NCBI GenBank assembly: GCA_035290305.1
Contig: DATDUR010000096.1
Span: 1-33,927, forward strand
Length of the DNA stretch: 33,927 bases
Direction: 5' to 3'
Source of the DNA: Patescibacteria group bacterium
GTDB taxonomy: Bacteria; Patescibacteriota; Patescibacteriia; UBA1558; UBA10009
Of this stretch, positions 10,522-30,414 are shown in pieces (the stretch's first letter is position 1; every line of letters begins with the position of its first letter). The translations under genes were made by a program, and so were the position numbers. The notes under the pieces were generated by a model that saw only the letters and a program-made list of their open reading frames with translations, made no database searches and was not told the origin of the DNA.

Positions 10522-12021
10522 ATGAAAAGATTATTTTCACAATTAGCCTTAATCTCCAGGATTATCATTATTATTCTGCCTTTTTTTATTTTGGGCATAT
10601 TGGTGGCAAAAGATTTGGTGCCGGGCGGTCATCTGGAATTCACCTATGATTTTTCCACCGATTCGCCGGTTGTTACCAATCTGTTTCCGGCCAACCGCCT
10701 GTCCGAAATCAACCGGGTCAATAACACGGATTCTTACTGGCAGCAGCTAGAGGCGGAGCCGGTTTATTTTGAGACCAGGCTGCCGCAAAAATTTGAGACG
10801 GCCGAGGTGGAGCTGGTTTACCAGAATAAAAGCCAGCCGTTAATCCAGGTGGGTTTAAGGACTTTAGGCGAGAACGAGTGGAATTATTACTTTAAACCTC
10901 TGGAAAATCAGCTCTTGGACCGTTTGGACTGGTTTAAACTGGAGTCCGAAGACGGCACCATCTGGCAAAAGCAGAAAAAATACCTTAGCTGGCCGCAATT
11001 TTTGGACAATTTTGACAGTTTAAAAAACCTGGCCGCTTATGATTATCCGCTCCAAAGAAAATTCACCATGCCCGACTATCGGCCGGCCGATCAACTTACC
11101 GTGATTGACAGGACCATCCGGGGCCGGCACAGCTTCTATACTTACATTAAAAACGAGCCTCTGGACTTCACTTTTACGGTTCAGGACATCAACCGCAGCC
11201 AAGGTCCGGATTTTTTAACGATTAACGTTTACAACGAAGCTAACGACAGAATCTATCAGAAACAACTTGGCGATGACGGCTACATTTCCAATCTGGATCC
11301 GGCCAGCGACCCCCGCGAGGTAAGCCTTAAAATCAACGGCCTGCCCGAAGGGGTTTACCGGCTGGAGCTGGAATGCGAAGACGAGTTTTTCTTCAGGCGG
11401 ATAACCACCAGGCAACAGTACCTTACTTTCATCAACCGGATTTATCTGGCCGACAGCCCGGAGTACGCCGACGGTTTTGTGGACCTGGATTATTCGCCGG
11501 TGAGCCTCTATAACACCATTCCGCGCCTAGGTTTTGAAACTTCGCATCCCGAAGGCCTGCAAACGGTGGGTATCGGCACTACACAAAGCCTGACTTTAAG
11601 CGAAATCCATAAAAATTATTTTATCACCGCTTTGGCAGTGCCGGCCGTGATTCAGTCGCCCAAAAACGACCTCAAAATTTTCGGCCGCGGCCTGCTGGCT
11701 TTTTCCAAAACCATGTATTTTAATCCGGAAATTTACGAATTGCGGGATTTCTTTATCAGCGACCAGACCGATTATCTGATTTCCGAATATCAAACGCCGG
11801 CCATTCTGGAAAACGGCTGGAAAAAGAACAGCGTCAAATTTGATTTGCAAAACGCCGAAATCGTCAACCGTAAATTAAGGTTCGCCTTGAGTATTCCCGA
11901 GTTGAACAGCTCGGCCGAAACCATTCCGCTCAAAAGCATTAAAATAACTTTGGACAAAGAACCCCTAAGCTACCAAGAAATTATCGCCAAAATATTTAAA
12001 TACGTAAGGGAGAAATTTTAA
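10522..12021 (+). CDS. N-terminally anchored extracytoplasmic protein, function unknown
   Basis: 499 aa with a single N-terminal hydrophobic helix (IIIIILPFFILGILVA) followed by a hydrophilic domain. The start directly follows the stop of the GT-C gene. Confidence 0.75.
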   Translation: MKRLFSQLALISRIIIIILPFFILGILVAKDLVPGGHLEFTYDFSTDSPVVTNLFPANRLSEINRVNNTDSYWQQLEAEPVYFETRLPQKFETAEVELVYQNKSQPLIQVGLRTLGENEWNYYFKPLENQLLDRLDWFKLESEDGTIWQKQKKYLSWPQFLDNFDSLKNLAAYDYPLQRKFTMPDYRPADQLTVIDRTIRGRHSFYTYIKNEPLDFTFTVQDINRSQGPDFLTINVYNEANDRIYQKQLGDDGYISNLDPASDPREVSLKINGLPEGVYRLELECEDEFFFRRITTRQQYLTFINRIYLADSPEYADGFVDLDYSPVSLYNTIPRLGFETSHPEGLQTVGIGTTQSLTLSEIHKNYFITALAVPAVIQSPKNDLKIFGRGLLAFSKTMYFNPEIYELRDFFISDQTDYLISEYQTPAILENGWKKNSVKFDLQNAEIVNRKLRFALSIPELNSSAETIPLKSIKITLDKEPLSYQEIIAKIFKYVREKF

Positions 12022-12090
12022 ATTAATTTAAAAATTTATAATTCTAAGATTAAATTGAAATTGAAAATTTAAAATTATAAATTAATTAAT

Positions 12091-12501
12091 ATGTTCGGAT
12101 TTGAAACAACCAAACGAAAAAGAAACCGATTCTTTAAATATCTGGGCTTCTGCGCGGTGGAAGTGAGCCGGACGGCTTTTGTAGTATCGGTTATCAGCTA
12201 TGTTGTTTATCTGGCTCTGGAAAATTTCAAAACCGGCCTTATCAGCAATTATTTTGATTTAAACATCCTGCTGCTCGCGGCCGCCTTATCCGGTTTAATC
12301 ATTATTTTATTTAACGAAGAAACGAAAAACCGGCGTCCCCGCCGGAGAATTTTTACGGCCGTTATTTTGGCTTTGGCCGTGGCGATTTACAGTTATCAGG
12401 AGTTTAATAATCTGGGCAAAATCAGCTATTTATTGACGATTTTAACGGCATTGACAATCTTCTCCATTATTGCCATATTAGATAGACAAAACTATGATTG
12501 A
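12091..12501 (+). CDS. small membrane protein, unknown function
   Basis: 136 aa with 3-4 hydrophobic helices and a central RRPRRR loop. Its end overlaps the rfbC-like start by 8 nt. Confidence 0.6.
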   Translation: MFGFETTKRKRNRFFKYLGFCAVEVSRTAFVVSVISYVVYLALENFKTGLISNYFDLNILLLAAALSGLIIILFNEETKNRRPRRRIFTAVILALAVAIYSYQEFNNLGKISYLLTILTALTIFSIIAILDRQNYD

Positions 12502-22385: not shown

Positions 22386-22835
22386 ATGAAAATCTTGTTA
22401 ATTCAAAACGTTGACCGGGTCGGTAAAAAAGGCGAGGTTAAAGAAGTGGCCAACGGTTTTGCCGGAAATTTTTTATTTCCCCGCGGCCTGGCCGTGATAG
22501 CCACCGAGCGGGTGATGGCGGAAAATAAAATCAGACAAGACAAGGTTATTCACCAATCTGTTTCTAAAAAAGATGATCTGGGAAAAAACCTTAATCGCCT
22601 GAAAGATAAAACCGTTACAACCAAGGTCAAAGCCTCGGCTAAGGGCACGCTGTTTCAATCAATCGGCTCTAAAGAAATTGTCCGTCTGATTGAGGCGCAG
22701 CTTAAAATTTCCCTGCCGGAAAAAGCCGTTAAACTGGACAACTCTCTTAAAGAATTGGGAGAACATCAGCTCAAAGCCGCTGCCGGAGATAAAGCCGTTA
22801 ATTTTAAATTAAAAATAGAACCAGATGGTCAATAA
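22386..22835 (+). CDS. rplI: 50S ribosomal protein L9
   Basis: 149 aa starting MKILLIQNVDRVGKKGEVKEVANGFAGNFLFPRGLAV, a typical L9 N-domain. Confidence 0.93.
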   Translation: MKILLIQNVDRVGKKGEVKEVANGFAGNFLFPRGLAVIATERVMAENKIRQDKVIHQSVSKKDDLGKNLNRLKDKTVTTKVKASAKGTLFQSIGSKEIVRLIEAQLKISLPEKAVKLDNSLKELGEHQLKAAAGDKAVNFKLKIEPDGQ

Positions 22836-24525
22836 AAACATTAAAACCAAATACATCTTCGTTTCCGGCGGCGTCTTGAGCGGCCTGGGCAAGGGCGTCT
22901 GCGCCGCCTCCATCGGCTTTCTGCTGGAAAACCGCGGTTATAAAATCGGCGTTATTAAATGCGAAAATTACCTCAACGTGGATTCCGGCACCATTAATCC
23001 CATTGAACATGGCGACGCCTTTTTATGCGAAGACGGCCTGGAGGCCGACATGGACCTGGGCACTTACGAACGCTTTTTAAACCGCGAAATGGGCCATCGC
23101 AATTTCACCACCATGGGCCAGATTTACAAAACCGTGATTGACCGCGAACGGTCCTTTGGCTACAACGGCGAGGACGTGGAAGCCATTCCCCACATTTCCG
23201 ACGAAATCATCGCCCGAATCCAGGAAGCGGGCCAGGACAACGAGATTATCATTATTGAACTGGGCGGCACGGCCGGCGAATACCAGAACATGCTTTATTA
23301 CGAGGCCTGCCGCATTATGAAGGCCGAACTACCCGGACAGGTTTTAAACGTCCACGTCAGCTACGTGCCTTTGCCCGCGCACATTGGCGAACCCAAAACC
23401 ATGCCCACCCAGCTGTCCATGAGAACGGTTATGAGCATGGGCATTTTGCCGGAGTTTTTGGTTTTAAGAAGCGCGGCCACGCTGGATAAAAGACGGCGCT
23501 ACCTCTTGGGCCTTAAAACCAGCGTGCCGGGCGACAACGTCATCATGGCGCCGGATTTGGACAGCATTTACGAACTGCCGCTACTTTTTGCCAAGCAGGA
23601 ATTTGATAAAAAAATCCTTAAATATTTCAAGTTGCACTTAAAGACCCCTCGCCTGGGCGAATGGGCGAAGTTAATCAAAAAAATCAAAATTCAGAAAAAT
23701 AAATCAATTAATATCGTGATTGCCGGCAAATACATCAGCACCGGCGATTATGAACTTTACGATTCTTACGCCGCTTTGATTGAAGCGATTAAACACGCCT
23801 GCTGGCATTTAAACCTTAATCTTAATTTGCGCTTTGTTAATACTGAAGACATAGAAAAAGAGGGCAGCAAGCTGATCGGCAAGCCCGACGGGCTGATTGT
23901 GCCCATCGGCTGGGGCCACCGCGGCGCCGAAGGCAAAATTTCGGCCATCAGATACGCCCGGGAAAAGAAAATTCCTTATCTGGGCCTGTGCTACGGCATG
24001 CAGCTGGCCTGCGTGGAATTTGCCCGCCACGTGGTCGGTTTGTCCGACGCCAACAGCGTGGAAATAAATCCGGAAACCAAAAATCCGATTATCCACGACA
24101 TTCCCATGGACACCAGATACCAGGTGATAAAAGGCGAGGGCACTTCCATGCGTTTGGGCGCTTACGACTGTTATCTCTTGGAAAATTCCCAGGCCGGCAG
24201 AATTTACCTCAAAGCCGGCGAAGGCAGACTGCTTTCCGAGGTCCAAAAGAAAAACGCCAAAATCAAGGCCAAGGGCAGTATCAAAATTTCCGAAAGGCAC
24301 CGGCACAGATACGAATTCAATAACGACTATCGCGAAATTCTGGAAGATAACGGCCTGATTATTTCCGGCACTTCCGCCGACGACTTTTTCGTGGAAATGA
24401 TAGAATTGCCCAAGAAAATGCATCCGTTTTTCATCGCCACCCAGGGCCATCCGGAATACAAATCCAAACCCCTGCATCCTCATCCGATTTTCATTGAATT
24501 CTTAAAAGCCGGTTTAAAAAAATAA
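22825..24525 (+). CDS. pyrG: CTP synthase
   Basis: 566 aa with KYIFVSGGVLSGLGKG and the glutaminase domain motifs LGLCYGMQ and HRHRYEFN. It overlaps rplI by 11 nt. Confidence 0.97.
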   Translation: MVNKNIKTKYIFVSGGVLSGLGKGVCAASIGFLLENRGYKIGVIKCENYLNVDSGTINPIEHGDAFLCEDGLEADMDLGTYERFLNREMGHRNFTTMGQIYKTVIDRERSFGYNGEDVEAIPHISDEIIARIQEAGQDNEIIIIELGGTAGEYQNMLYYEACRIMKAELPGQVLNVHVSYVPLPAHIGEPKTMPTQLSMRTVMSMGILPEFLVLRSAATLDKRRRYLLGLKTSVPGDNVIMAPDLDSIYELPLLFAKQEFDKKILKYFKLHLKTPRLGEWAKLIKKIKIQKNKSINIVIAGKYISTGDYELYDSYAALIEAIKHACWHLNLNLNLRFVNTEDIEKEGSKLIGKPDGLIVPIGWGHRGAEGKISAIRYAREKKIPYLGLCYGMQLACVEFARHVVGLSDANSVEINPETKNPIIHDIPMDTRYQVIKGEGTSMRLGAYDCYLLENSQAGRIYLKAGEGRLLSEVQKKNAKIKAKGSIKISERHRHRYEFNNDYREILEDNGLIISGTSADDFFVEMIELPKKMHPFFIATQGHPEYKSKPLHPHPIFIEFLKAGLKK

Positions 24526-24618
24526 TAAATCAGGGACGCCGCCCCTATTTCCCCTCCTTAGTAAGGAGGGGATTAAGGGGAGGTTATATCATCCGTATTT
24601 CTCCATAAAAAATAACCT

Positions 24619-24644
24619 ACCCGTTTATAAAGACGGGTTTTATT
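24619..24644 (+). terminator. weak intrinsic terminator after pyrG
   Basis: ACCCGT-TTATAAAG-ACGGGT (6-bp stem) followed by TTTATT. It is preceded by a 9-bp GC hairpin, CCCCTCCTT-AGT-AAGGAGGGG, at 24551-24571. Confidence 0.4.
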
Positions 24645-24671
24645 GACATTCGGGTTAAAAAATAGTATATT
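24643..24671 (+). promoter_or_regulatory. sigma70-like promoter upstream of the tRNA-Gln fragment / GIY-YIG / tRNA-Gln unit
   Basis: TTGACA (24643-24648), a 17-nt spacer, then TATATT (24666-24671). The tRNA-like sequence starts about 20 nt downstream. Confidence 0.5.
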
Positions 24672-24690
24672 TTTTCAGTTGAAACTTTAT

Positions 24691-24787
24691 TCGGGGGTCG
24701 TCCCTCGGCCGTAGCCCATAGCCGGGCACGGCCTACGGGCAGCTCGCCCATAGGGCTATGCCCGAGGGAGGCTAATGGTAGGACACC
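24691..24787 (+). pseudogene. remnant of tRNA-Gln 5' part (nt 1-27), split by a 70-nt insertion
   Basis: 24691-24702 plus 24773-24787 are identical to nt 1-12 and 13-27 of the intact tRNA at 25062. The 4 upstream nt (TTAT) are also shared. There is no anticodon loop, T arm or 3' acceptor strand. Confidence 0.8.
24703..24772 (+). repeat. 70-nt GC-rich palindromic insertion (three-way-junction-like) in the D-arm position of the tRNA remnant
   Basis: Closing stem CCCTCGG/CCGAGGG is continued by GTAGCCC/GGGCTAT. It encloses two small hairpins, GCCG-GGCA-CGGC and GGGC-AGCTC-GCCC. The segment is absent from the intact tRNA copy. Confidence 0.6.
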
Positions 24788-25061
24788 TTATAATAATAAG
24801 ATGAAAAGCGATTTATATTATATTTACGTTTTGCTTAGTTTAAAAGATAATAATCTTTATATTGGATGTACTTCAAATTTGGATAAAAGGTTAAAATATC
24901 ATAATCAAGGAAGGGTAAAGTCAACACAAAATAGAAGACCTTTTAAATTAGTTTACTTTGAAGAATATACTGACAAGTACTTAGCTTTTAAAACGGAAAG
25001 GTCTTATAAAACAGCTAAAGGTAAAAGAATCTTAAAATCTAAAATAAAAAATAATACTTAT
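24788..25061 (+). mobile_element. AT-rich GIY-YIG ORF module inserted between duplicated tRNA-Gln 5' segments
   Basis: It is bounded by 31-nt direct repeats (the left copy is interrupted), is strongly AT-rich relative to its flanks, and carries one small nuclease-family ORF. Confidence 0.4.
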
Positions 25062-25076
25062 TCGGGGGTCGTCTAA
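24801..25076 (+). CDS. GIY-YIG nuclease family protein (small, UPF0213-like)
   Basis: 91 aa with YYIYVL...LYIGCTSNLDKRLKYHNQG...YFEE, the GIY/YIG-Arg-Glu pattern. The last 5 codons and the TAA (25074-25076) are encoded by nt 1-15 of the tRNA-Gln gene. Confidence 0.82.
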   Translation: MKSDLYYIYVLLSLKDNNLYIGCTSNLDKRLKYHNQGRVKSTQNRRPFKLVYFEEYTDKYLAFKTERSYKTAKGKRILKSKIKNNTYSGVV

Positions 25077-25135
25077 TGGTAGGACACCAGGTTTTGGTCC
25101 TGGTAATAGGGGTTCGATTCCCTTCCCCCGAGCCA
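25062..25135 (+). tRNA. tRNA-Gln (anticodon UUG), CCA encoded
   Basis: Hand-folded cloverleaf. Acceptor stem TCGGGGG/CCCCCGA with the U1-A72 pair typical of bacterial tRNA-Gln. D loop AATGGTA. Anticodon stem CCAGG/CCTGG with loop TT-TTG-GT. T arm AGGGG-TTCGATT-CCCTT, discriminator G and CCA. Confidence 0.9.
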
Positions 25136-25180
25136 ATAACTTTGAAAATTAATTCAAATCTTTACTAAAGATTTAACTGT

Positions 25181-25648
25181 ATGAATAGTAATATAAAATT
25201 TTCTGAGAACCTTATAAAAGGCAAGGTAGCTGAAGTAATCTTTGAACAGATGTTTAGAGAATCCGGAAAATTTACGATTTTGAAATCTGGTTATGAATAT
25301 ATCTTTCCGGAGTTAGCTCAATACAAACAGTTGCCAAGAGTAGAATTGATGCTTCAGAATATTAAAGATATCCCTGATTTTATTCTAATTTCAGATGATA
25401 AAAGGAAAGTTTATTTAGTGGAAGTAAAATATAGAACAAACTTAGTAAATAAAGAGATTTTAAAAATGGCAGAAAAGACACTAAAAGCATGGAATCACTC
25501 CTGCTTATTTGTCGCTTCACCTGATGGTTTCTATTTTGGACCTTGTAATACCATAGTTAACAATGGCGGCAAAATCGAACTCTTTAAATGGATAAATAAT
25601 GAAATCCAAAACGAGTATCTTAAATTGCTTAAAAAATTTGAAAAATAA
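25181..25648 (+). CDS. hypothetical protein with PD-(D/E)xK nuclease-like motif
   Basis: 155 aa. An N-terminal helix with Glu (KVAEVIFEQMF) is followed by IPDFILISDDKRKVYLVEVKYR (D ... E-x-K spacing). The gene is AT-rich and ends at a strong terminator. Confidence 0.65.
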   Translation: MNSNIKFSENLIKGKVAEVIFEQMFRESGKFTILKSGYEYIFPELAQYKQLPRVELMLQNIKDIPDFILISDDKRKVYLVEVKYRTNLVNKEILKMAEKTLKAWNHSCLFVASPDGFYFGPCNTIVNNGGKIELFKWINNEIQNEYLKLLKKFEK

Positions 25649-25662
25649 AAAAATAATAATTT

Positions 25663-25694
25663 CCGCACGTATTCACTTTACGTGCGGTTTTTTT
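25663..25694 (+). terminator. intrinsic terminator
   Basis: CCGCACGT-(9 nt)-ACGTGCGG forms a perfect 8-bp stem followed by T7. Confidence 0.7.
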
Positions 25695-25723
25695 ATCTCT
25701 TAAACCACTTTTAAAATTTCTTT

Positions 25724-26098
25724 CTAACCTATAGTTGCTGGAGCGGACAAAATGCCGTCGCTTTTTTTCTTAACGATGGTGCCGTGAATTAAACGAAACG
25801 CAGGACGACCTTCCGGTTTATAAATCATCGGCGCGCCGATTAAAGCCTGGCAATGAGTACATTTAAGACCGGGAAAATTGGATGATTTACTGACGGAATG
25901 GGAGCGTCCCGCAAGACTCTCCGGCGCATGTATCCGATTAAGATACAAGCGAAAGAGGTTTCCCGGACCATCTTTTTGATAAAGAAGCAGCCAATGCCGG
26001 CAATGGGAACAATAGATGTTGTAGAAAGCAGAGCTCCCGCCACGAAAGCTCATGTATTTGTCTCGTCTAAGTTTAAACTCTTGTTTGTCTTTTTTCAT
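25724..26098 (-). CDS. zinc-ribbon-like protein with internal duplication, unknown function
   Basis: 124 aa with two CxHC knuckles (YCSHC, KCTHC), each followed 14-17 aa later by FRL. It starts 15 nt downstream of the PilB-like ATPase stop on the same strand. Confidence 0.65.
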   Translation of the reverse strand: MKKDKQEFKLRRDKYMSFRGGSSAFYNIYCSHCRHWLLLYQKDGPGNLFRLYLNRIHAPESLAGRSHSVSKSSNFPGLKCTHCQALIGAPMIYKPEGRPAFRLIHGTIVKKKSDGILSAPATIG

Positions 26099-26113: not shown

Positions 26114-27307
26114 TTAAACTTTTAAAATCTCCTCAACGGAAGTAAGGCCGTTTAGAGCTTTGTGGAGAGCGTCCTGATTAAAAACAAGCATCTCTTCTTT
26201 AAGGGCGGCTGATTTTATTTTTTCCAATTCAGCGCTGGAGAGGATTGACTTAACAATCGCCGGAGTCATTTCCAAAAATTCAAAAACGCCGAGGCGGCCC
26301 AGATAACCGCCGTTGGAACATCGTCCGCAACCCCTGCCATAATAAAACTTCAATCCTTCGGTTGTTTCCAAATCAAAACGTTTTTTAATCTCGCTTAAAG
26401 TTTTTTTATCCGGTTCAGCCGCAACGGAACAATGCGGGCAGATTTTTCTGACCAGCTTCTGGGCAACGATTAAGCTTGCCGATTCGACAATGGCGGCGGG
26501 GGAGAGTCCTAAAGAAATCAGTCTTTTGAGAGCCGAATAAACGCCTGCGGCGCTTAAAGAAGCTAAAACCAGCTTACCGTTAAGAGCGGCTTGGACGGCT
26601 AAGTTGGCGCTGGACTTATCTCTTATCTCGTCAATCATGATAATGTCCGGGTCCTGGTTTAAAAAGGAAGATATGGCCAAACTTAAAGTCAAACCCGATT
26701 CGGGATTAATCTGACATTGATTAACGCCGGGCAGACGATAAACAATCCGTTCCTCTACGGTGGAAATGTTGACTTCCGGCCGGTTTAAATCGTTTAAAAG
26801 CGAATAAAGAGTGCTGGTTTTACCGTTGCCGGCCGAAGCAGCAAATAAAATCAAACCGCGCCCCCTGGCGGTTTTTTGTTCCAAAAGCATTGCCAGTTCT
26901 TGAGGCAGGCCCAAGTCTGCCAAAACCAAATTTTTATCGCTTTCGTTTAAAAGACGGATGACCGCCTTTTCTCCCCGGGTCACCGGCATAATCGAAACCC
27001 TGAAAGATATTCTATAATCGGGCGAGCTTACCTTAAAACGGCCGTCCTGGGGCAGGCGATGTTCGTCAATTTTTAAACCGGCTAAAATTTTTATTCTTTT
27101 TAACAAACCGGCCTCAAGCTCTTTGGGCAGGCTCAAAACTTCCTCCAAAACGCCGTCAAGCCTGTGCCGGACTACGAGATTTTTTTCAGTCGGTTCAAGG
27201 TGAAGGTCGGAAGCGTTTTTTAAAACCGCGTACTCCAACAAAGTATCCAGCACCCGGACCACCGGCAGGCCTTGAATTTGTTCGAGCTTAAGTTTATCTT
27301 GGATCAT
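26114..27307 (-). CDS. GspE/PilB-family secretion/pilus ATPase, short and divergent
   Basis: 397 aa with the N2-domain motif RLPQDGRF, Walker A AGNGKTS, Walker B DIIMIDEIRD and the tetracysteine CPHC...CGRC cluster. The Asp box and His box are degenerate (see findings). Confidence 0.9.
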   Translation of the reverse strand: MIQDKLKLEQIQGLPVVRVLDTLLEYAVLKNASDLHLEPTEKNLVVRHRLDGVLEEVLSLPKELEAGLLKRIKILAGLKIDEHRLPQDGRFKVSSPDYRISFRVSIMPVTRGEKAVIRLLNESDKNLVLADLGLPQELAMLLEQKTARGRGLILFAASAGNGKTSTLYSLLNDLNRPEVNISTVEERIVYRLPGVNQCQINPESGLTLSLAISSFLNQDPDIIMIDEIRDKSSANLAVQAALNGKLVLASLSAAGVYSALKRLISLGLSPAAIVESASLIVAQKLVRKICPHCSVAAEPDKKTLSEIKKRFDLETTEGLKFYYGRGCGRCSNGGYLGRLGVFEFLEMTPAIVKSILSSAELEKIKSAALKEEMLVFNQDALHKALNGLTSVEEILKV

Positions 27308-27334
27308 AATATTTCGACGAAATTCATTTAATTT

Positions 27335-27343
27335 ATTATAACA
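27335..27343 (-). promoter_or_regulatory. candidate extended -10 promoter for the PilB-like gene
   Basis: The minus strand reads TGTTATAAT, about 27 nt upstream of ATG 27307. There is no convincing -35. Confidence 0.3.
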
Positions 27344-27351
27344 TAATGTTT

Positions 27352-27426
27352 GCGTATATCTGATGTCCCGCGTTAGCGGGATATGGGCGCAGGCTCGCCG
27401 GAGGCGAACCGGAGCCAGATATACGC
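27352..27426 (+). other. 75-nt GC-rich structured element (three-way junction), abutting the left inverted repeat
   Basis: A perfect 11-bp closing stem GCGTATATCTG/CAGATATACGC encloses two hairpins: ATGTCCCGC-GTTA-GCGGGATAT, and GGCT..CCGG-AGGCGAA-CCGG-AGCC. Confidence 0.5.
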
Positions 27427-27498
27427 TGTTAGCTGATGTAGTTAAAAGTTTTTATCCCGACGTAAAGTCGGGACATTATTTAGGGCTATTTTTTATTT
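27427..27498. repeat. left 72-nt inverted repeat (IR-L) of the cassette
   Basis: Its reverse complement matches 30262-30333 at 68/72 positions by hand alignment. It contains the hairpin TCCCGAC-GTAAA-GTCGGGA. Confidence 0.88.
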
Positions 27499-27499
27499 T

Positions 27500-27528
27500 T
27501 TGAAACTGTACTATGTGATTAATATTAT
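27500..27528 (+). promoter_or_regulatory. candidate sigma70-like promoter for the kinase gene
   Basis: TTGAAA (27500-27505), a 17-nt spacer, then TATTAT (27523-27528), immediately inside IR-L. Confidence 0.45.
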
Positions 27529-27592
27529 AAATTAAAATAAGTTAAAATTCAACCCTCAAAGTTTTTTCTTAGGCTTTAGATTATTTTTTAAA

Positions 27593-28597
27593 ATGACAAA
27601 CATTCCTATTTTTGATAAAATAGCATTAAGCTATATAAAGCCATTTTTTATGAAAAATTATCTATTACGAATCAAAAAAATCAAGAAACAATTCGCTATT
27701 TCCAAAGAAGAGCGTTTTGTAGCCGCTCCCAACGGCACTAATTATAAAGTTTTCCTTTCAAATAATTATGTTATCCGTTTTCGAGACAACAACCCCAAAC
27801 TTTTATCAAGAGAGGCAAATTTTTTGAAACAACTTAATCATGCGCTAATACCAAAAGTTTTGTGGTGCGGAGAAATTGATCAACTATTTTTTATGGTTGA
27901 AAATCGACTTCCTGGGAAAACAATAAATTTAGTTTGGAAAAATCTCTCAGTAAGCAATAAAAAGAATATCATTGAACAAATTGTTGAGTTTTTGCAGTAT
28001 CAGAAAATTCAAACAAAAGATTATGTCTATTCAGTAAAGACGGGTAAAAAATATGAAAGATTTTTGGATTATCTTACAGATGGCTTAAAGCAAAAAGCTA
28101 CTAGTATTAAAAAATTTAAACAAACAAATAAAATAATGGGAGACTTATTATTAATTGTTAACGATCCAGAAGTTAGAAATTTGTTCACTAATAAAACAAA
28201 ATCTACTTTAGTCCACGGCGATCTTATTATTCATAATCTGCTTACAGATGGAAAAAATTTAACGGGAGTTCTTGATTGGGAACTGGCATTATGGGGCGAT
28301 CCTGACTATGACCTTTTTCGCCTCTTTTATTATCAAGGATGTGCGAAAGCCTACCAAGAACAGGGAGTCGATGAAACATTTGAATCTGATTATATGGATA
28401 GGTTAATCGCAACGATTTTGAAGTCTGACTTTATAAAAAATAAAAAATTATTCCAGAGAAAATATCAATTAGTGCGCGCTATTTTTTATCTCAATGCGCT
28501 TTATTGGGCAACAAGCTCAGATAGCCCGGAAAAAAATATCAATGAAATTATAGTACAATGGGATAAAAAAAGCGGGACCAAATACTTGCGTACTTAA
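27593..28597 (+). CDS. phosphotransferase enzyme family (APH/choline-kinase-like) protein
   Basis: 334 aa with the catalytic loop VHGDLIIHNLL and the Mg-binding segment GVLDWELALWGDPDYDL. The gene is very AT-rich. An alternative start is Met20 (27650). Confidence 0.85.
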   Translation: MTNIPIFDKIALSYIKPFFMKNYLLRIKKIKKQFAISKEERFVAAPNGTNYKVFLSNNYVIRFRDNNPKLLSREANFLKQLNHALIPKVLWCGEIDQLFFMVENRLPGKTINLVWKNLSVSNKKNIIEQIVEFLQYQKIQTKDYVYSVKTGKKYERFLDYLTDGLKQKATSIKKFKQTNKIMGDLLLIVNDPEVRNLFTNKTKSTLVHGDLIIHNLLTDGKNLTGVLDWELALWGDPDYDLFRLFYYQGCAKAYQEQGVDETFESDYMDRLIATILKSDFIKNKKLFQRKYQLVRAIFYLNALYWATSSDSPEKNINEIIVQWDKKSGTKYLRT

Positions 28598-28723: not shown

Positions 28724-30178
28724 TCATAATGTACAGGTTTGGCAATTACCTACTGCCGCAGTTCCGTTTGACCGAAGATATTCTACGGCAAGCGCTTCTG
28801 TGACCCTGCGATAAAAATCGCACATGTCGTCAAAAAATTTTTGTTGACCCTCGACCGCTGAGCGAGAGACGACCTCTCTGGTAACATGACATTGTCCACC
28901 ACAGGGTCCTTCTATCTCGCAGCCGGAACAGTACGCATCTGTTCCAGGGAAACGGCTGGCAACTATTTGTACCAAATTACCCCTTTCCTCGAATATTTCA
29001 TCAAAACTGTCTATGTGACCGACTGTCGTGGTAGTGTGGCTACAGATTTTAATACTGCCATCCACATTGAATTCAAGGGTTTTGCCCTGAACGGCAGCAC
29101 AAAACGCGTGATCTCCAGACAAGAGGCTTTCTGATGTCAGATTACGGAATGGAGAATCCCACGTTCCAAAGAAGTTGATACCGTGTTCGTTGGCGTACTT
29201 TTTGAGTCGCATGAGTTTTGCAATTCGCTTCTCAACCGGAACGTGAACTAGACCAACGAGATTATAATCGAAGGCGATCGAAGTCATTTTTCTTTCAATC
29301 GCCAAATCAAGAACGTCTGTGTCGACGAGTTCGAAGTTGCCTCTTGTAACTGTGATGCTGAATCCGTCGAGGGGATAGCCAATCTCTACCAAGAGATCAA
29401 ATTTCTCAAGGATGCGAGCAAATGTTCCCTGTCCGCCCTTTGTTACACGGATGGCATCATTAGCTGTATGGGTGCCGTCAAGTGAGGTTGCAATACGGAC
29501 TTGATACCTCTTGAATATCTCGGCGATCTGTCTAGTCATGAGTACTAAGTTTGTATTAATGGCGAACTCAAACGAGAGATCGTCCATTTTGCTACAGTAT
29601 TCCAACACCCGCTCAATAACGGGCCAGTTGACCAGTGGTTCTGCGTTTCCGAAATGGATATTACCATGGGTTCTTCCTTACTCCCTCGTCAACGCAATGT
29701 ATTGGTCTACACATCGTTTTGCAGTTTTCCAAGTCATGTTAAGTTGCGGAGCCGTTTGTTGATATAAAGGCAACGCCTGGTCAGAGTTGGTTTTGGGCTG
29801 GAAGTGAATGCAGTGTGTGCATTTGAAGTTACACGAATCGCTGATTGCGAGGCCCATTCGATCAACCGTCCGTCGCTCTTGCACCTGGGCGAGTTGCTGT
29901 GTTTTTTTCTCTTGCAGGAATTTTTTCTCATCAAAGCCGGATTCGACAAGAAAAAAAATTTCCGCGAACTCTTGAATAGTACCTTTGGGGTCTTCGTCGC
30001 ACATTTTAGAAACTTCCTCCACAGTAGTTAATTGTCTGAAGAAATCTAAAAATTGAAGACCTTCATTATTGACAATCCTGGGATTGCCATACAGCGTGTG
30101 ATAAACCATTGCCATTTCTGATTTAGAATCAGAAATGATGCGGAGATTCGGGGATAACTGATATCTTTGTTTTTTCAC
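28724..30178 (-). pseudogene. radical SAM/SPASM peptide maturase with N-terminal RRE-like domain, interrupted by one in-frame TAA
   Basis: GTG start at 30178, 8 nt after an AAGGAGG SD. A roughly 90-aa PqqD-like N-domain precedes CNFKCTHC (CxxxCxxC). TAA at 29678-29680 is in the same frame as the downstream ORF (29608-28724), which continues IHFGNAEPLVNW and ends with the SPASM motif CSGCEIEGPCGGQC. The protein would be 483 aa if read through. Confidence 0.85.
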
Positions 30179-30219
30179 GTTTCTATCCTCCTTGCTTTTG
30201 ATGTTAAAGAACTGCTGAT

Positions 30220-30249
30220 ACCTTATCACTACCCCCCCCATTTTGTAAA
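30220..30249 (-). promoter_or_regulatory. candidate promoter of the rSAM operon with a G8 tract in the spacer
   Basis: The minus strand reads TTTACA (30249-30244), an 18-nt spacer containing GGGGGGGG (30239-30232), then TGA-TAAGGT (extended -10, 30228-30220). The match to consensus is weak. Confidence 0.25.
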
Positions 30250-30261
30250 GGGCTTTGTCAT

Positions 30262-30333
30262 AAATAAAAAATAGCCCCAAATAATGTCCCGACTTTACGT
30301 CGGGATAAAAACTTTTAATTACTTCAGCTAATA
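30262..30333. repeat. right 72-nt inverted repeat (IR-R) of the cassette
   Basis: It matches the reverse complement of 27427-27498 at 68/72 positions and contains the hairpin GTCCCGAC-TTTAC-GTCGGGAT. Confidence 0.88.
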
Positions 30334-30341
30334 TTGGATAT

Positions 30342-30381
30342 GAGAACATTAGAATATGAGAACATGAAAACATTAGAACAT
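30342..30381 (+). repeat. five contiguous 8-bp tandem units
   Basis: GAGAACAT TAGAATAT GAGAACAT GAAAACAT TAGAACAT, with consensus (G/T)A(G/A)AA(C/T)AT. The array lies directly outside IR-R. Confidence 0.8.
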
Positions 30382-30414
30382 TGCCAAATCCCGGTTTTTA
30401 AAAAGGCTAATATT

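Follow-up and report, generated by a model that had tools for sequence, protein, structure and literature searches.

A mini GIY-YIG gene, a palindromic element and a duplicated tRNA 5' end form a recurrent module at tRNA-Gln and tRNA-Glu genes of Patescibacteria

Endonuclease genes that settle in essential genes have been described in fungal mitochondria. There, mobile open reading frames (mORFs) bring a replacement gene terminus with them, as in atp6, atp9, cox2 and nad3 of Glomus (PMC3630166); atp6 of Allomyces macrogynus is an earlier case, as summarized in the same paper. A free-standing endonuclease open reading frame (ORF), of the GIY-YIG type in atp9, lies inside the essential gene and supplies a copy of the gene end. 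The native end stays nearby as an unexpressed duplicate, and the ORF may be in phase with the gene and is co-transcribed with the rebuilt gene (PMC3630166). Among transfer RNA (tRNA) genes, SegB is a free-standing GIY-YIG homing endonuclease encoded in the tRNA gene cluster of T4 (PMC2330249; reviewed in PMC2988022). Here we analyzed a 33,927-nucleotide (nt) stretch of DNA, hereafter the window, from an ultra-small bacterium of the Patescibacteria, or Candidate Phyla Radiation (CPR), recovered from groundwater metagenomes. In this window a GIY-YIG ORF stands between a promoter and a tRNA-Gln gene. We found that the ORF belongs to a three-part module, together with a partial copy of the tRNA 5' end and a palindromic element that we call H, and that the module was inserted into the tRNA-Gln gene. 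Literature searches on GIY-YIG proteins and tRNA, CPR, UPF0213/YhbQ and palindromic elements returned no description of this module, which is found at more than 50 tRNA-Gln/Glu genes and is apparently undescribed.

Positions below are those of the window, L-numbers denote comparison loci or contigs, and promoter, tRNA fragment, H insert, ORF and tRNA are all given on the forward strand. The promoter is of the sigma-70 type, with TTGACA at 24643-24648, a 17-nt spacer and TATATT at 24666-24671; it agrees with the consensus at 11 of 12 positions and is the top promoter-like site within 24300-25800. Behind it stands a leftover 5' fragment of tRNA-Gln in two parts. The first (24687-24702) consists of TTAT and tRNA nt 1-12 and is an exact 16-nt copy of 25058-25073. 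The second (24772-24787) consists of nt 12-27, the D arm, and is an exact 16-nt copy of 25073-25088. The parts share one C, and together they equal the contiguous 31 nt at 25058-25088, where TTAT and nt 1-27 recur within the functional tRNA. Between them lies the H insert (24703-24771), which measures 69 nt, or 70 nt if the duplicated C is counted, and has a GC content of 72%. After the fragment comes an AT-rich segment of 274 nt (24788-25061), whose element-specific portion (24788-25057, 23% GC) holds most of the GIY-YIG ORF (24801-25076, 91 amino acids, Pfam PF01541). The intact tRNA-Gln(UUG), with an encoded CCA, occupies 25062-25135. Both ARAGORN and Rfam RF00005 (62.3 bits against a threshold of 29, E-value 1.2e-12) recognize it, and it is the sole tRNA in the window. 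A preliminary description of this DNA had named the promoter, the 31-nt direct repeat, the AT-rich segment with its GIY-YIG ORF and the complete tRNA downstream, and all four withstood analysis.

The ORF has no stop codon of its own. It overlaps the tRNA by 15 nt, so that its final five codons with the stop TAA are tRNA nt 1-15, and the TAA that it borrows is nt 13-15 in the D loop. The repeat is not due to chance: we calculate that each of the two exact 16-mers, given their right order and a span of 1.2 kb, would be expected about 1e-4 times by chance. The same protein is encoded on 10 metagenome contigs, nine of which have exactly the arrangement of the window, while the tenth (L001) has an extra block after the tRNA. 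Since the nine come from several samples, the arrangement is not an assembly artefact.

The direction of change was read from contigs that encode close homologues of pyrG, the gene upstream of the promoter (22825-24525), from which it is separated by a terminator-like hairpin (24619-24638). L174, with 93% amino acid identity in pyrG and 85.4% nt identity to the window over 2.3 kb, has the same terminator hairpins, promoter and leader, and then directly TCGGGGGTCGTCTAATGGTAGGACACCAGGTTTTGGTCCTGG, an uninterrupted tRNA-Gln. Its alignment with the window breaks off exactly at 24702, or tRNA nt 12; the next aligned stretch starts at 25058 and is identical at 46/46 positions. In L178 and L179 (pyrG 81%), pyrG is followed by a single intact tRNA-Gln(UUG), and L178 is a second empty site. 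Thus the ancestral order is pyrG, terminator, promoter, tRNA-Gln, and the derived order is promoter, nt 1-12, H, nt 12-27, GIY-YIG ORF, complete tRNA-Gln. Because L174 has the same promoter directly before an uninterrupted tRNA-Gln, the window arrangement is an insertion that left the promoter behind, as the preliminary description had proposed; L178 agrees. Decay of a tandem tRNA-Gln duplicate, the alternative raised at that time, is ruled out by the single uninterrupted tRNA-Gln in L174 and L178. The promoter at 24643-24671 originally belonged to tRNA-Gln, as an identical promoter lies 24 nt upstream of the uninterrupted tRNA-Gln in L174; it is now 390 nt from the intact tRNA, with the leftover fragment and the ORF in between. 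Such a conserved target, occupied here and cleanly empty in relatives, is a feature of free-standing homing endonuclease genes. The insertion fits one event at nt 12/13, which brought H, nt 13-27 and the ORF with 16-nt repeats as flanks, and it fits equally well two events, H into nt 12/13 and the ORF into nt 27/28.

The module recurs at the same kind of gene in many Patescibacteria/CPR lineages. Forty-three loci came from a scan of species-representative genomes (185,579 species, one genome each) with a single peptide pattern, and further loci from a metagenome scan. The resulting close family, with homologues 45-75% identical, comprises 53 distinct ORFs. Twenty-four lie directly upstream of, or overlap, a tRNA-Gln(CUG) gene, 18 a tRNA-Gln(UUG) gene and seven a tRNA-Glu gene (UUC in four, CUC in three); four stand at a contig end and none anywhere else. 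An intact tRNA-Gln (42) or tRNA-Glu (7) therefore abuts 49 of the 49 distinct close homologues with enough flank, and the D-arm sequence ATCGTCTAAYGGT(T)AGGAC is common to the four target tRNAs. All modules but L029 carry, upstream of the ATG, a partial 5' copy of the local tRNA, split by H, and H is present in 52 of the 53. How far the duplication reaches differs between modules, from nt 6 to nt 49. The modules come in two layouts. In type A, to which the window and all Glu loci belong, nt 1-12 precede H, and nt 12 to about 25-29 stand between H and the ATG; in type B, H is reversed, with nt 1 to 4-6 before it and nt 5-7 to 11-15 between it and the ATG. Whichever the layout, H ends 7-33 nt from the ATG (medians 18 in A and 15.5 in B). 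The tRNA-5'-duplication signature that the preliminary description had suggested looking for was thus found in all but one close module. That description had also considered that GIY-YIG ORFs might sit at many loci without any tRNA duplication. This is not so: the close homologues abut tRNA-Gln/Glu and, L029 excepted, have a leftover 5' fragment.

The junction between ORF and tRNA is conserved as well. About two thirds of the close homologues stop within the tRNA D loop, at nt 13-15 in most Gln loci (offset -14/-15) and at a D-loop TAG in the Glu loci (-21); at the remaining loci the ORF stops 1-7 nt before the tRNA. Many homologues end in CGVV, SGVV or CGIV (C/S-G-V/I-V), which is tRNA nt 1-12 in translation, followed by the D-loop TAA. 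Because this in-frame fusion of ORF to tRNA is conserved across the family, we favor the view that the element carried its own tRNA 5' part over a local duplication. The preliminary description had assumed such a copy and had placed the insertion at nt 27/28; the first part of that claim is favored by the fusion, and for the second nt 12/13 serves equally well.

A transposition-like insertion would instead have made a long target-site duplication on the spot, by staggered nicks about 25-31 nt apart, one immediately before nt 1 and the other, in the opposite strand, near nt 27, followed by joining of the ORF segment and gap filling. In most loci both copies of nt 1-12 and of nt 12-25 are indeed identical and lineage-specific, including the Glu-type D loop, and the repeat reaches beyond the tRNA by 4 nt (TTAT) in the window and by 7 nt in L099. 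However, identity beyond tRNA nt 1 is usually 1-2 nt, which is explained by T/A bias at positions -1 and -2, and a target-site duplication extending upstream of the tRNA is therefore unsupported. Fusion of the ORF to tRNA nt 1 in a conserved frame across homologues of 45-75% identity also argues for an inherited junction, and the variable length of the duplicated part does not suit this route. We know of no GIY-YIG enzyme that makes such staggered cuts, and we regard this explanation as quite improbable.

Beyond the close family, L123 encodes a GIY-YIG protein of 48% identity beside tRNA-Ser(GCT) and has the full layout there, with nt 1-9, a reversed H and nt 10-16 before the ORF and the intact tRNA after it (L123:765-1178). 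Among more distant short GIY-YIG ORFs, one has tRNA-Leu(UAA) 7 nt downstream (L049:3001-3327), two have tRNA-Trp about 120 nt upstream (L050 and L052), and one has a transfer-messenger RNA (tmRNA) gene 177 nt downstream (L038:3001-3803). The link between GIY-YIG genes and tRNA genes may thus reach well beyond the Gln/Glu clade. A second, distant GIY-YIG clade (37-52% identity) lies about 100-150 nt downstream of tRNA-Gln genes that also have the cassette upstream (L068:7740-7997, L099:1542-1748, L129:395-646, L077:13-111), and some tRNA-Gln genes therefore have nuclease genes on both sides. In L028:3240-3345, L029:3240-3336 and L123:1070-1190, inverted repeats of 8-12 nt flank the intact tRNA (e.g., TTCTGCGCAAAG...CTTTGCGCAGAA); they would lengthen the acceptor stem and could be a processing signal or a recombination scar.

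H reads CCTCGGCCGTAG, loop, CTAYGGGCGAGG, with a fixed G.G mismatch in the stem, and is always flanked by C on either side, where the C may belong to the element or result from a 1-nt duplication. In the window, an outer 42-nt copy in orientation A (24703-24740 plus 24768-24771; arms CCTCGGCCGTAG...CTACGGGC/GAGG) has a second copy of 27 nt (24741-24767) nested in its 3' arm. The arms match a consensus found upstream of nearly all homologous ORFs and, in an exact-pattern scan of metagenomes, at at least 120 sites. Thirty-four of these 120 sites are GIY modules, and 11 have a neighboring tRNA-Gln/Glu gene but no ORF. The flanks of the other 75 are unrelated, and their fragments carry no GIY gene and no tRNA-Gln/Glu gene; viral contigs gave no match in the scan. 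The minimal unit is 27 nt, or nine codons, and H nests within itself and forms tandem arrays. In 19 cases H lies in frame within long ORFs of unrelated proteins, in both orientations and only in the two stop-free frames of each, where it encodes the peptides xLGRSPTGEA, xLA(H/R)RATAEG, ASPVGLRPR and PSAVALRAR; these loci include L054, L056, L061, L067, L082, L087, L102 (two copies), L113, L115, L120 and L131. A short palindromic non-coding unit at many unrelated sites and in both orientations has the properties of elements such as the transposable elements of the miniature inverted-repeat type (MITEs) and Rickettsia palindromic elements (RPEs). Because of the unrelated sites, the in-frame copies, the nesting and the arrays, H is a dispersed palindromic element at the DNA level and behaves like RPEs. 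Literature searches found no description of an in-frame palindromic element of the H type in CPR.

At modules H occurs about once per 60 nt, whereas the flanks of these loci have about one copy in 250 kb. This enrichment is far beyond chance, and H is either part of what moves or drawn to the site. The insertion that splits the leftover fragment in the window had been noticed in the preliminary description. The insertion is there, as a conserved and integral part of the module rather than a side event. We also considered H as a removable intron in functional tRNAs and rejected this: deletion of H in silico yields only two additional tRNAs detectable by ARAGORN (L028 and L029), both decayed and each beside an intact copy. 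Folding of the leftover fragment with H gave a z-score of -1.9, which is indistinguishable from a composition effect.

The protein of the window matches PF01541 over residues 6-75 with 60.6 bits (cut-off 22.6; E-value 1.8e-16). Y9, Y20, G22, R30, H34 and E66 are invariant across 31 homologues, and we take Y9, Y20, R30, H34 and E66 to be catalytic by analogy of spacing with Y6, Y17, R27, H31 and E75 of I-TevI. Homologues measure 78-120 amino acids, mostly about 84. A profile built from them matched, among Protein Data Bank (PDB) sequences, the UPF0213 proteins 1zg2 (2.9e-11) and 1ywl (9.4e-11), in line with the UPF0213-like assignment made at the outset, and Slx1 weakly. An AlphaFold2 model (mean pLDDT, its per-residue confidence score, 89.4) has the alpha/beta GIY-YIG fold, with a three-stranded sheet and helices. 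Its best Foldseek matches are the Slx1 nuclease domain (7cq2, 6sei; probability 1.00) and 1zg2, with I-TevI weak. Neither Pfam nor the model revealed a DNA-binding domain in the protein of 84-91 residues, and Pfam gave no further domain; the extended DNA-binding module of I-TevI and the Seg proteins is lacking. The protein consists of the catalytic domain only, lies within the size range of about 80-110 residues of UPF0213/YhbQ-like proteins and resembles 1zg2 and 1ywl. We therefore describe it as a predicted nuclease of the UPF0213/Slx1-like type. The wider family of short GIY-YIG proteins numbers 20,038 clusters at E <= 1e-3, of which about eight are as close as the tRNA-Gln/Glu clade. In the literature we found no report of mobility or of tRNA linkage for UPF0213/YhbQ proteins. 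A PHROGs search with the protein returned nothing, a search of phage genomes gave only three weak matches (37-42% identity), and NCBIfam gave only a sub-threshold match to a group I intron endonuclease family (TIGR01453, 19 bits against a cut-off of 56). Together with the lack of H in viral contigs, these results indicate that the element does not look phage-derived.

The properties of H and of the protein bear on a second explanation, in which the GIY-YIG protein would be a structure-specific nuclease acting on the extruded H hairpin or cruciform, and H and the ORF would form one element. Dispersed H copies would be non-autonomous derivatives mobilized in trans, with the tRNA 5' region as a safe harbor for the master copy. 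The spacing, with H 7-33 nt before the ATG in 52 of 53 modules and in either orientation, is consistent with this, as is the occurrence of H at differing tRNA positions, which are nt 12/13 or nt 4-6 and, in tRNA-Ser, nt 9/10. Conservation of the stem sequence with its fixed G.G mismatch argues that DNA, not RNA structure, is recognized. The arrays and self-nesting at modules, the reality of H as a dispersed element with a 27-nt unit, and a protein that lacks a DNA-binding domain and whose closest fold is that of the structure-specific nuclease Slx1 point the same way. However, the ORF lies outside the H arms, and H is therefore not an internally deleted ORF-bearing element. Moreover, 75 of the 120 H sites have no GIY or tRNA-Gln/Glu gene on the fragment, H occurs only once in the 34-kb window, and by itself this explanation accounts neither for the exclusive location at tRNA-Gln/Glu nor for the 5' duplication. 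On balance we consider it unlikely. We are equally doubtful of its broadest form, an unrecognized two-component mobile system of CPR, in which the nuclease would recognize or cut H hairpins, or cut H landing sites, and mobilize 27-nt units genome-wide, including in frame, from a master copy on the promoter and 5' end of tRNA-Gln/Glu, with related clades at tRNA-Ser, tRNA-Leu, tRNA-Trp and tmRNA.

Evidence for movement of the cassette comes from L129 and L060. The two loci do not differ at any position of the H array, nt 12-25, the ORF or tRNA nt 1-21 (100% identity), and beyond nt 21 they have different tRNA-Gln(UUG) bodies and unrelated flanks; a recent, identical cassette is thus present at two loci. 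In a neighbor-joining tree of limited resolution, the Glu-linked ORFs are monophyletic and nested among Gln-linked ORFs, and those at CUG and UUG isoacceptors are interspersed. The distribution of the GIY-YIG family among relatives is sporadic. Decayed copies are also found. L093 has an internally deleted ORF, of which the first and last codons of an L015-like ORF remain, and L109, L116, L074 and L095 retain fragment, H and tRNA without the ORF. In L028 and L029 a full-length resident tRNA-Gln, interrupted by H and decayed, stands beside the intact tRNA of the cassette; ARAGORN detects the resident only after removal of H in silico. The same element at different sites, a sporadic spread and decayed copies are features of homing endonuclease genes. 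The leftover fragment and the intact tRNA of L028, L027, L074, L077 and L134 disagree at acceptor positions, and it is the intact tRNA that pairs at 7/7; the two pieces therefore have different histories, like the foreign and native termini of fungal mORFs. The identical proteins P0019 and P0007 each gave one genomic context when additional contexts were sought.

Two further variants deserve description. L001, otherwise 99.95% identical to the window, differs at L001:10336-10522, which corresponds to window 25136-25180. Its tRNA and 45-nt flank are followed by AAATATTTTAA and a GC-rich structured block of about 108 nt that starts with an inverted copy of the local T arm, then by the remnant of a tRNA 3' end with mutations (GGGTTCCATTCCCTTCCCCCGAGCCA) and by the flank once more. 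A copy of the block with 93% identity follows another tRNA-Gln, of the CUG type, at L142:2190-2262, and Rfam returned nothing for it. The block may represent a resident tRNA that died and filled up with hairpins, or else, on the 3' side, a second type of element. In L186, the intact tRNA-Gln(CUG) (2740-2816) has, relative to the leftover copy (2422-2497), the D-arm changes C9G, C12G with compensatory G23C, and A24T, and the ORF tail remains CGVV through synonymous GTC-to-GTG changes. These changes may represent target-site immunity evolving in a host tRNA.

Direct repeats of the tRNA 5' part that flank the ORF also suggest integration of the Campbell type, in which a circular intermediate carrying the ORF, with tRNA nt 1 to about 27 as its attachment site, would recombine with the tRNA gene. 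A cut by the nuclease could stimulate the host's homologous recombination to this end, or some recombinase could act instead, and the outcome would be the mirror of classical tRNA islands. Recombination between the 16-nt repeats would precisely restore the wild-type site, which fits the sporadic distribution. However, no integrase, recombinase or transposase domain was found among the neighbors in the window, where the GIY-YIG ORF is the only ORF between the repeats; the absence of an integrase had been noted from the start. Moreover, after a crossover within nt 1-27 the H of the left copy would be the recipient's own, whereas in L129 and L060 the identical ORF is accompanied by identical H arrays. 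A homology of 25-30 nt is marginal for RecA-type recombination, and we hold this route to be very improbable. A tRNA 3' remnant downstream was also looked for in the window and not found. A group I intron in the tRNA was considered and set aside, since Rfam contains no matching intron family here and the downstream tRNA is complete without splicing. A permissive Rfam search (E-value up to 10) of 24000-25800 and of the L001 variant gave the tRNA only, with no intron, ribozyme or known small RNA; a match to BTnc060 was dismissed (E-value 1.3-2.5, 20 bits as against 229).

The same observations speak to whether the module is mobile at all. If it were a host arrangement, the protein would have a role tied to tRNA-Gln/Glu, such as processing, repair, toxicity or defense, and selection would hold its gene beside these tRNAs; the fragment and H would then be what remains of a local duplication long ago. 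The strict synteny with tRNA-Gln/Glu over many lineages and the conservation of the protein with intact catalytic residues would suit such a role. Against it stand the clean empty sites in close relatives, the identical cassette at two unrelated loci, the ORF-deleted remnants and the strongly foreign composition of the ORF (23% GC, as against 45% for the window). The gene is missing from most CPR genomes, with 43 loci among the 185,579 species under the single peptide pattern, and the filled/empty polymorphism and incongruent phylogenies that mobility predicts are already partly seen. We find it hardly credible that the module is not mobile.

We propose, with somewhat better than even confidence, that the module is a selfish cassette of the homing type that invades the 5' part of tRNA-Gln genes and restores its target. 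The nuclease would cut or nick tRNA-Gln/Glu genes in their common D arm, at or near nt 12/13; this position is the prime candidate because H sits there. The break would be repaired by copying H, nt 13-27, the ORF and nt 1-12 from a filled locus, and the tRNA sequence on either side of the ORF would be the only homology required. With a copy of the tRNA 5' part of its own at the end, the cassette would rebuild the essential tRNA downstream, and the native 5' end would remain at the promoter as a dead fragment. H in the leftover fragment most likely marks and destroys a residual target or cleavage site there, and it may also tune expression. By this route the cassette would gain a strong promoter that the host cannot silence.

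Expression from that promoter would be unusual. Because the terminator scan found none between 24671 and 25062, co-transcription of ORF and tRNA is likely, and the tRNA may plausibly depend on read-through from the promoter upstream; the AT-rich ORF contains weak promoter-like sites. The second part of the leftover fragment may give the ORF a Shine-Dalgarno-like AGGA in most family members. Since the stop codon lies within the tRNA, cleavage by ribonuclease P (RNase P) at 25062 would strip it from the ORF and leave a non-stop message, so that tRNA maturation and synthesis of full-length nuclease would compete. These features suggest that expression of the nuclease is self-limiting, perhaps coupled to tRNA processing and tmRNA rescue.

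Several points weigh against the homing cassette. Nuclease activity and the D arm as its target are predictions. The protein is a catalytic domain of about 84 residues whose fold is nearest to structure-specific Slx1, with I-TevI a weak match, and we know of no precedent for sequence-specific homing by such a domain alone. The rebuilt tRNA of the window is identical to the empty-site allele over the visible 42 nt, the leftover copy being the one disrupted by H; a filled locus should therefore stay cleavable, and D-arm changes are seen in L186 only. The Glu loci carry a Glu-type fragment between H and the ATG, and copying from a donor would therefore need later correction, or else an origin by local duplication. 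In L129 and L060 the right junction could lie anywhere from the stop codon to nt 21, as both tRNAs may share nt 1-21. Type A and type B orientations of H are interspersed in the poorly resolved protein tree; H has therefore been repeatedly re-acquired or exchanged, which plain homing does not predict. Finally, homing requires donor and recipient DNA in one cell.

The surroundings of the module in the window comprise rplI, pyrG, a 155-residue ORF, a zinc-ribbon ORF, a T2SSE ATPase and APH. The AT-rich stretch runs on past the tRNA into the 155-residue ORF (25181-25648, forward strand, 29.5% GC), which is followed by a bidirectional terminator (25663-25687) and is context, probably outside the module. 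It belongs to a large uncharacterized CPR family (389 homologues, 53-63% identity) and has weak, sub-threshold Pfam matches of the PD-(D/E)xK type (BsuBI_PstI_RE, TnsA-N). We rejected it as a component of the cassette, as the two homologue contexts checked were both without a tRNA. The zinc-ribbon-like ORF of 124 residues (25724-26098, reverse strand) is absent from the variant contig L004. Directly after the pyrG stop lies a GC-rich imperfect palindrome (24539-24583) with 22-nt arms that are 82% complementary (CCGCCCCTATTTCCCCTCCTTA/TAAGGAGGGGATTAAGGGGAGG); it is partly kept in L174, and its sequence is unrelated to H. Further patches of low GC at 27201-28400, 12001-12400 and 30001-30400 (30-37% against a mean of 45%) may be other foreign insertions.

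Why does the module matter? The mini GIY-YIG proteins of the UPF0213/YhbQ type have solved structures and an orphan function, and the module offers them a concrete, testable role as selfish nucleases in tRNA genes. If the two-component reading were true, this would be the first biological role for the orphan UPF0213 family, with its roughly 20,000 clusters, and would name the enzyme behind RPE-like in-frame palindromic elements. The module also exemplifies how a mobile gene can settle in an essential RNA gene with neither an intron nor an integrase, by having the 5' end rebuilt and taking over the promoter. The host could then not silence the nuclease without losing tRNA-Gln, and could remove the cassette only by precise recombination between the 16-nt repeats. 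A stop codon inside the tRNA would build in a conflict between processing by RNase P and translation of the nuclease, and could be a new form of expression control. Moreover, a GC-rich palindrome of 27 nt that spreads in CPR and is tightly linked to a nuclease gives a possible handle on how palindromic elements move. On the practical side, tRNA annotation and the binning of CPR metagenomes can be led astray by the tRNA pseudo-fragments and chimeric tRNAs to which the modules give rise.

How does the module compare with known systems? Its unusual features are the 5' polarity, the tRNA target, the capture of a promoter, a nuclease without a DNA-binding domain and a near-constant palindromic partner. 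The protein resembles UPF0213/YhbQ proteins (1zg2, 1ywl) and the Slx1 domain in fold, size, catalytic residues and sequence relation. However, Slx1 partners with Slx4 and has a zinc-finger domain, and the CPR protein has no zinc finger. Like the Seg genes of T4, the module places a GIY-YIG gene among tRNA genes without an intron, and Seg genes spread by cleavage of the allele that lacks them, with co-conversion of the flanks. In contrast to the CPR protein, Seg proteins exceed 200 residues, have DNA-binding domains and are encoded between genes, with no partial duplication of a tRNA; their activity has been shown experimentally, whereas that of the CPR protein is predicted. Classical tRNA islands and prophages likewise insert into tRNA genes, regenerate the tRNA with a duplicated segment and have flanking direct repeats. 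They rely on a tyrosine integrase and the tRNA 3' end, whereas the CPR module has no integrase, duplicates the 5' end, carries a single ORF of 0.27 kb as cargo and parts the tRNA from its promoter.

For H, likenesses are found in RPEs, in MITEs and repetitive extragenic palindromic (REP) repeats, and in the GC clusters of yeast mitochondria. Like these elements, H is short, GC-rich, palindromic and dispersed in both orientations, nests, forms arrays and occurs in frame within genes; MITEs are reviewed in PMC10969869. Unlike them, H is a sequence family of its own in CPR hosts, has a 27-nt unit (nine codons) and is tightly coupled to one nuclease gene family, with no known transposase.

By analogy, the CPR module would be the mirror image of the fungal endonuclease ORFs that bring a replacement gene terminus. 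In both, an endonuclease ORF lies in an essential gene, the displaced end is supplied and the native end is left behind. Unlike in the fungal mORFs, it is the 5' end that is duplicated in CPR, so that the native 5' fragment stays with the promoter, and the target is a bacterial chromosomal tRNA gene rather than a mitochondrial protein gene. Moreover, whereas organellar homing endonucleases have DNA-binding modules, the CPR nuclease is a catalytic domain of about 84 residues, and the palindromic H is a near-constant third component that sets the CPR module apart from the fungal mORFs.

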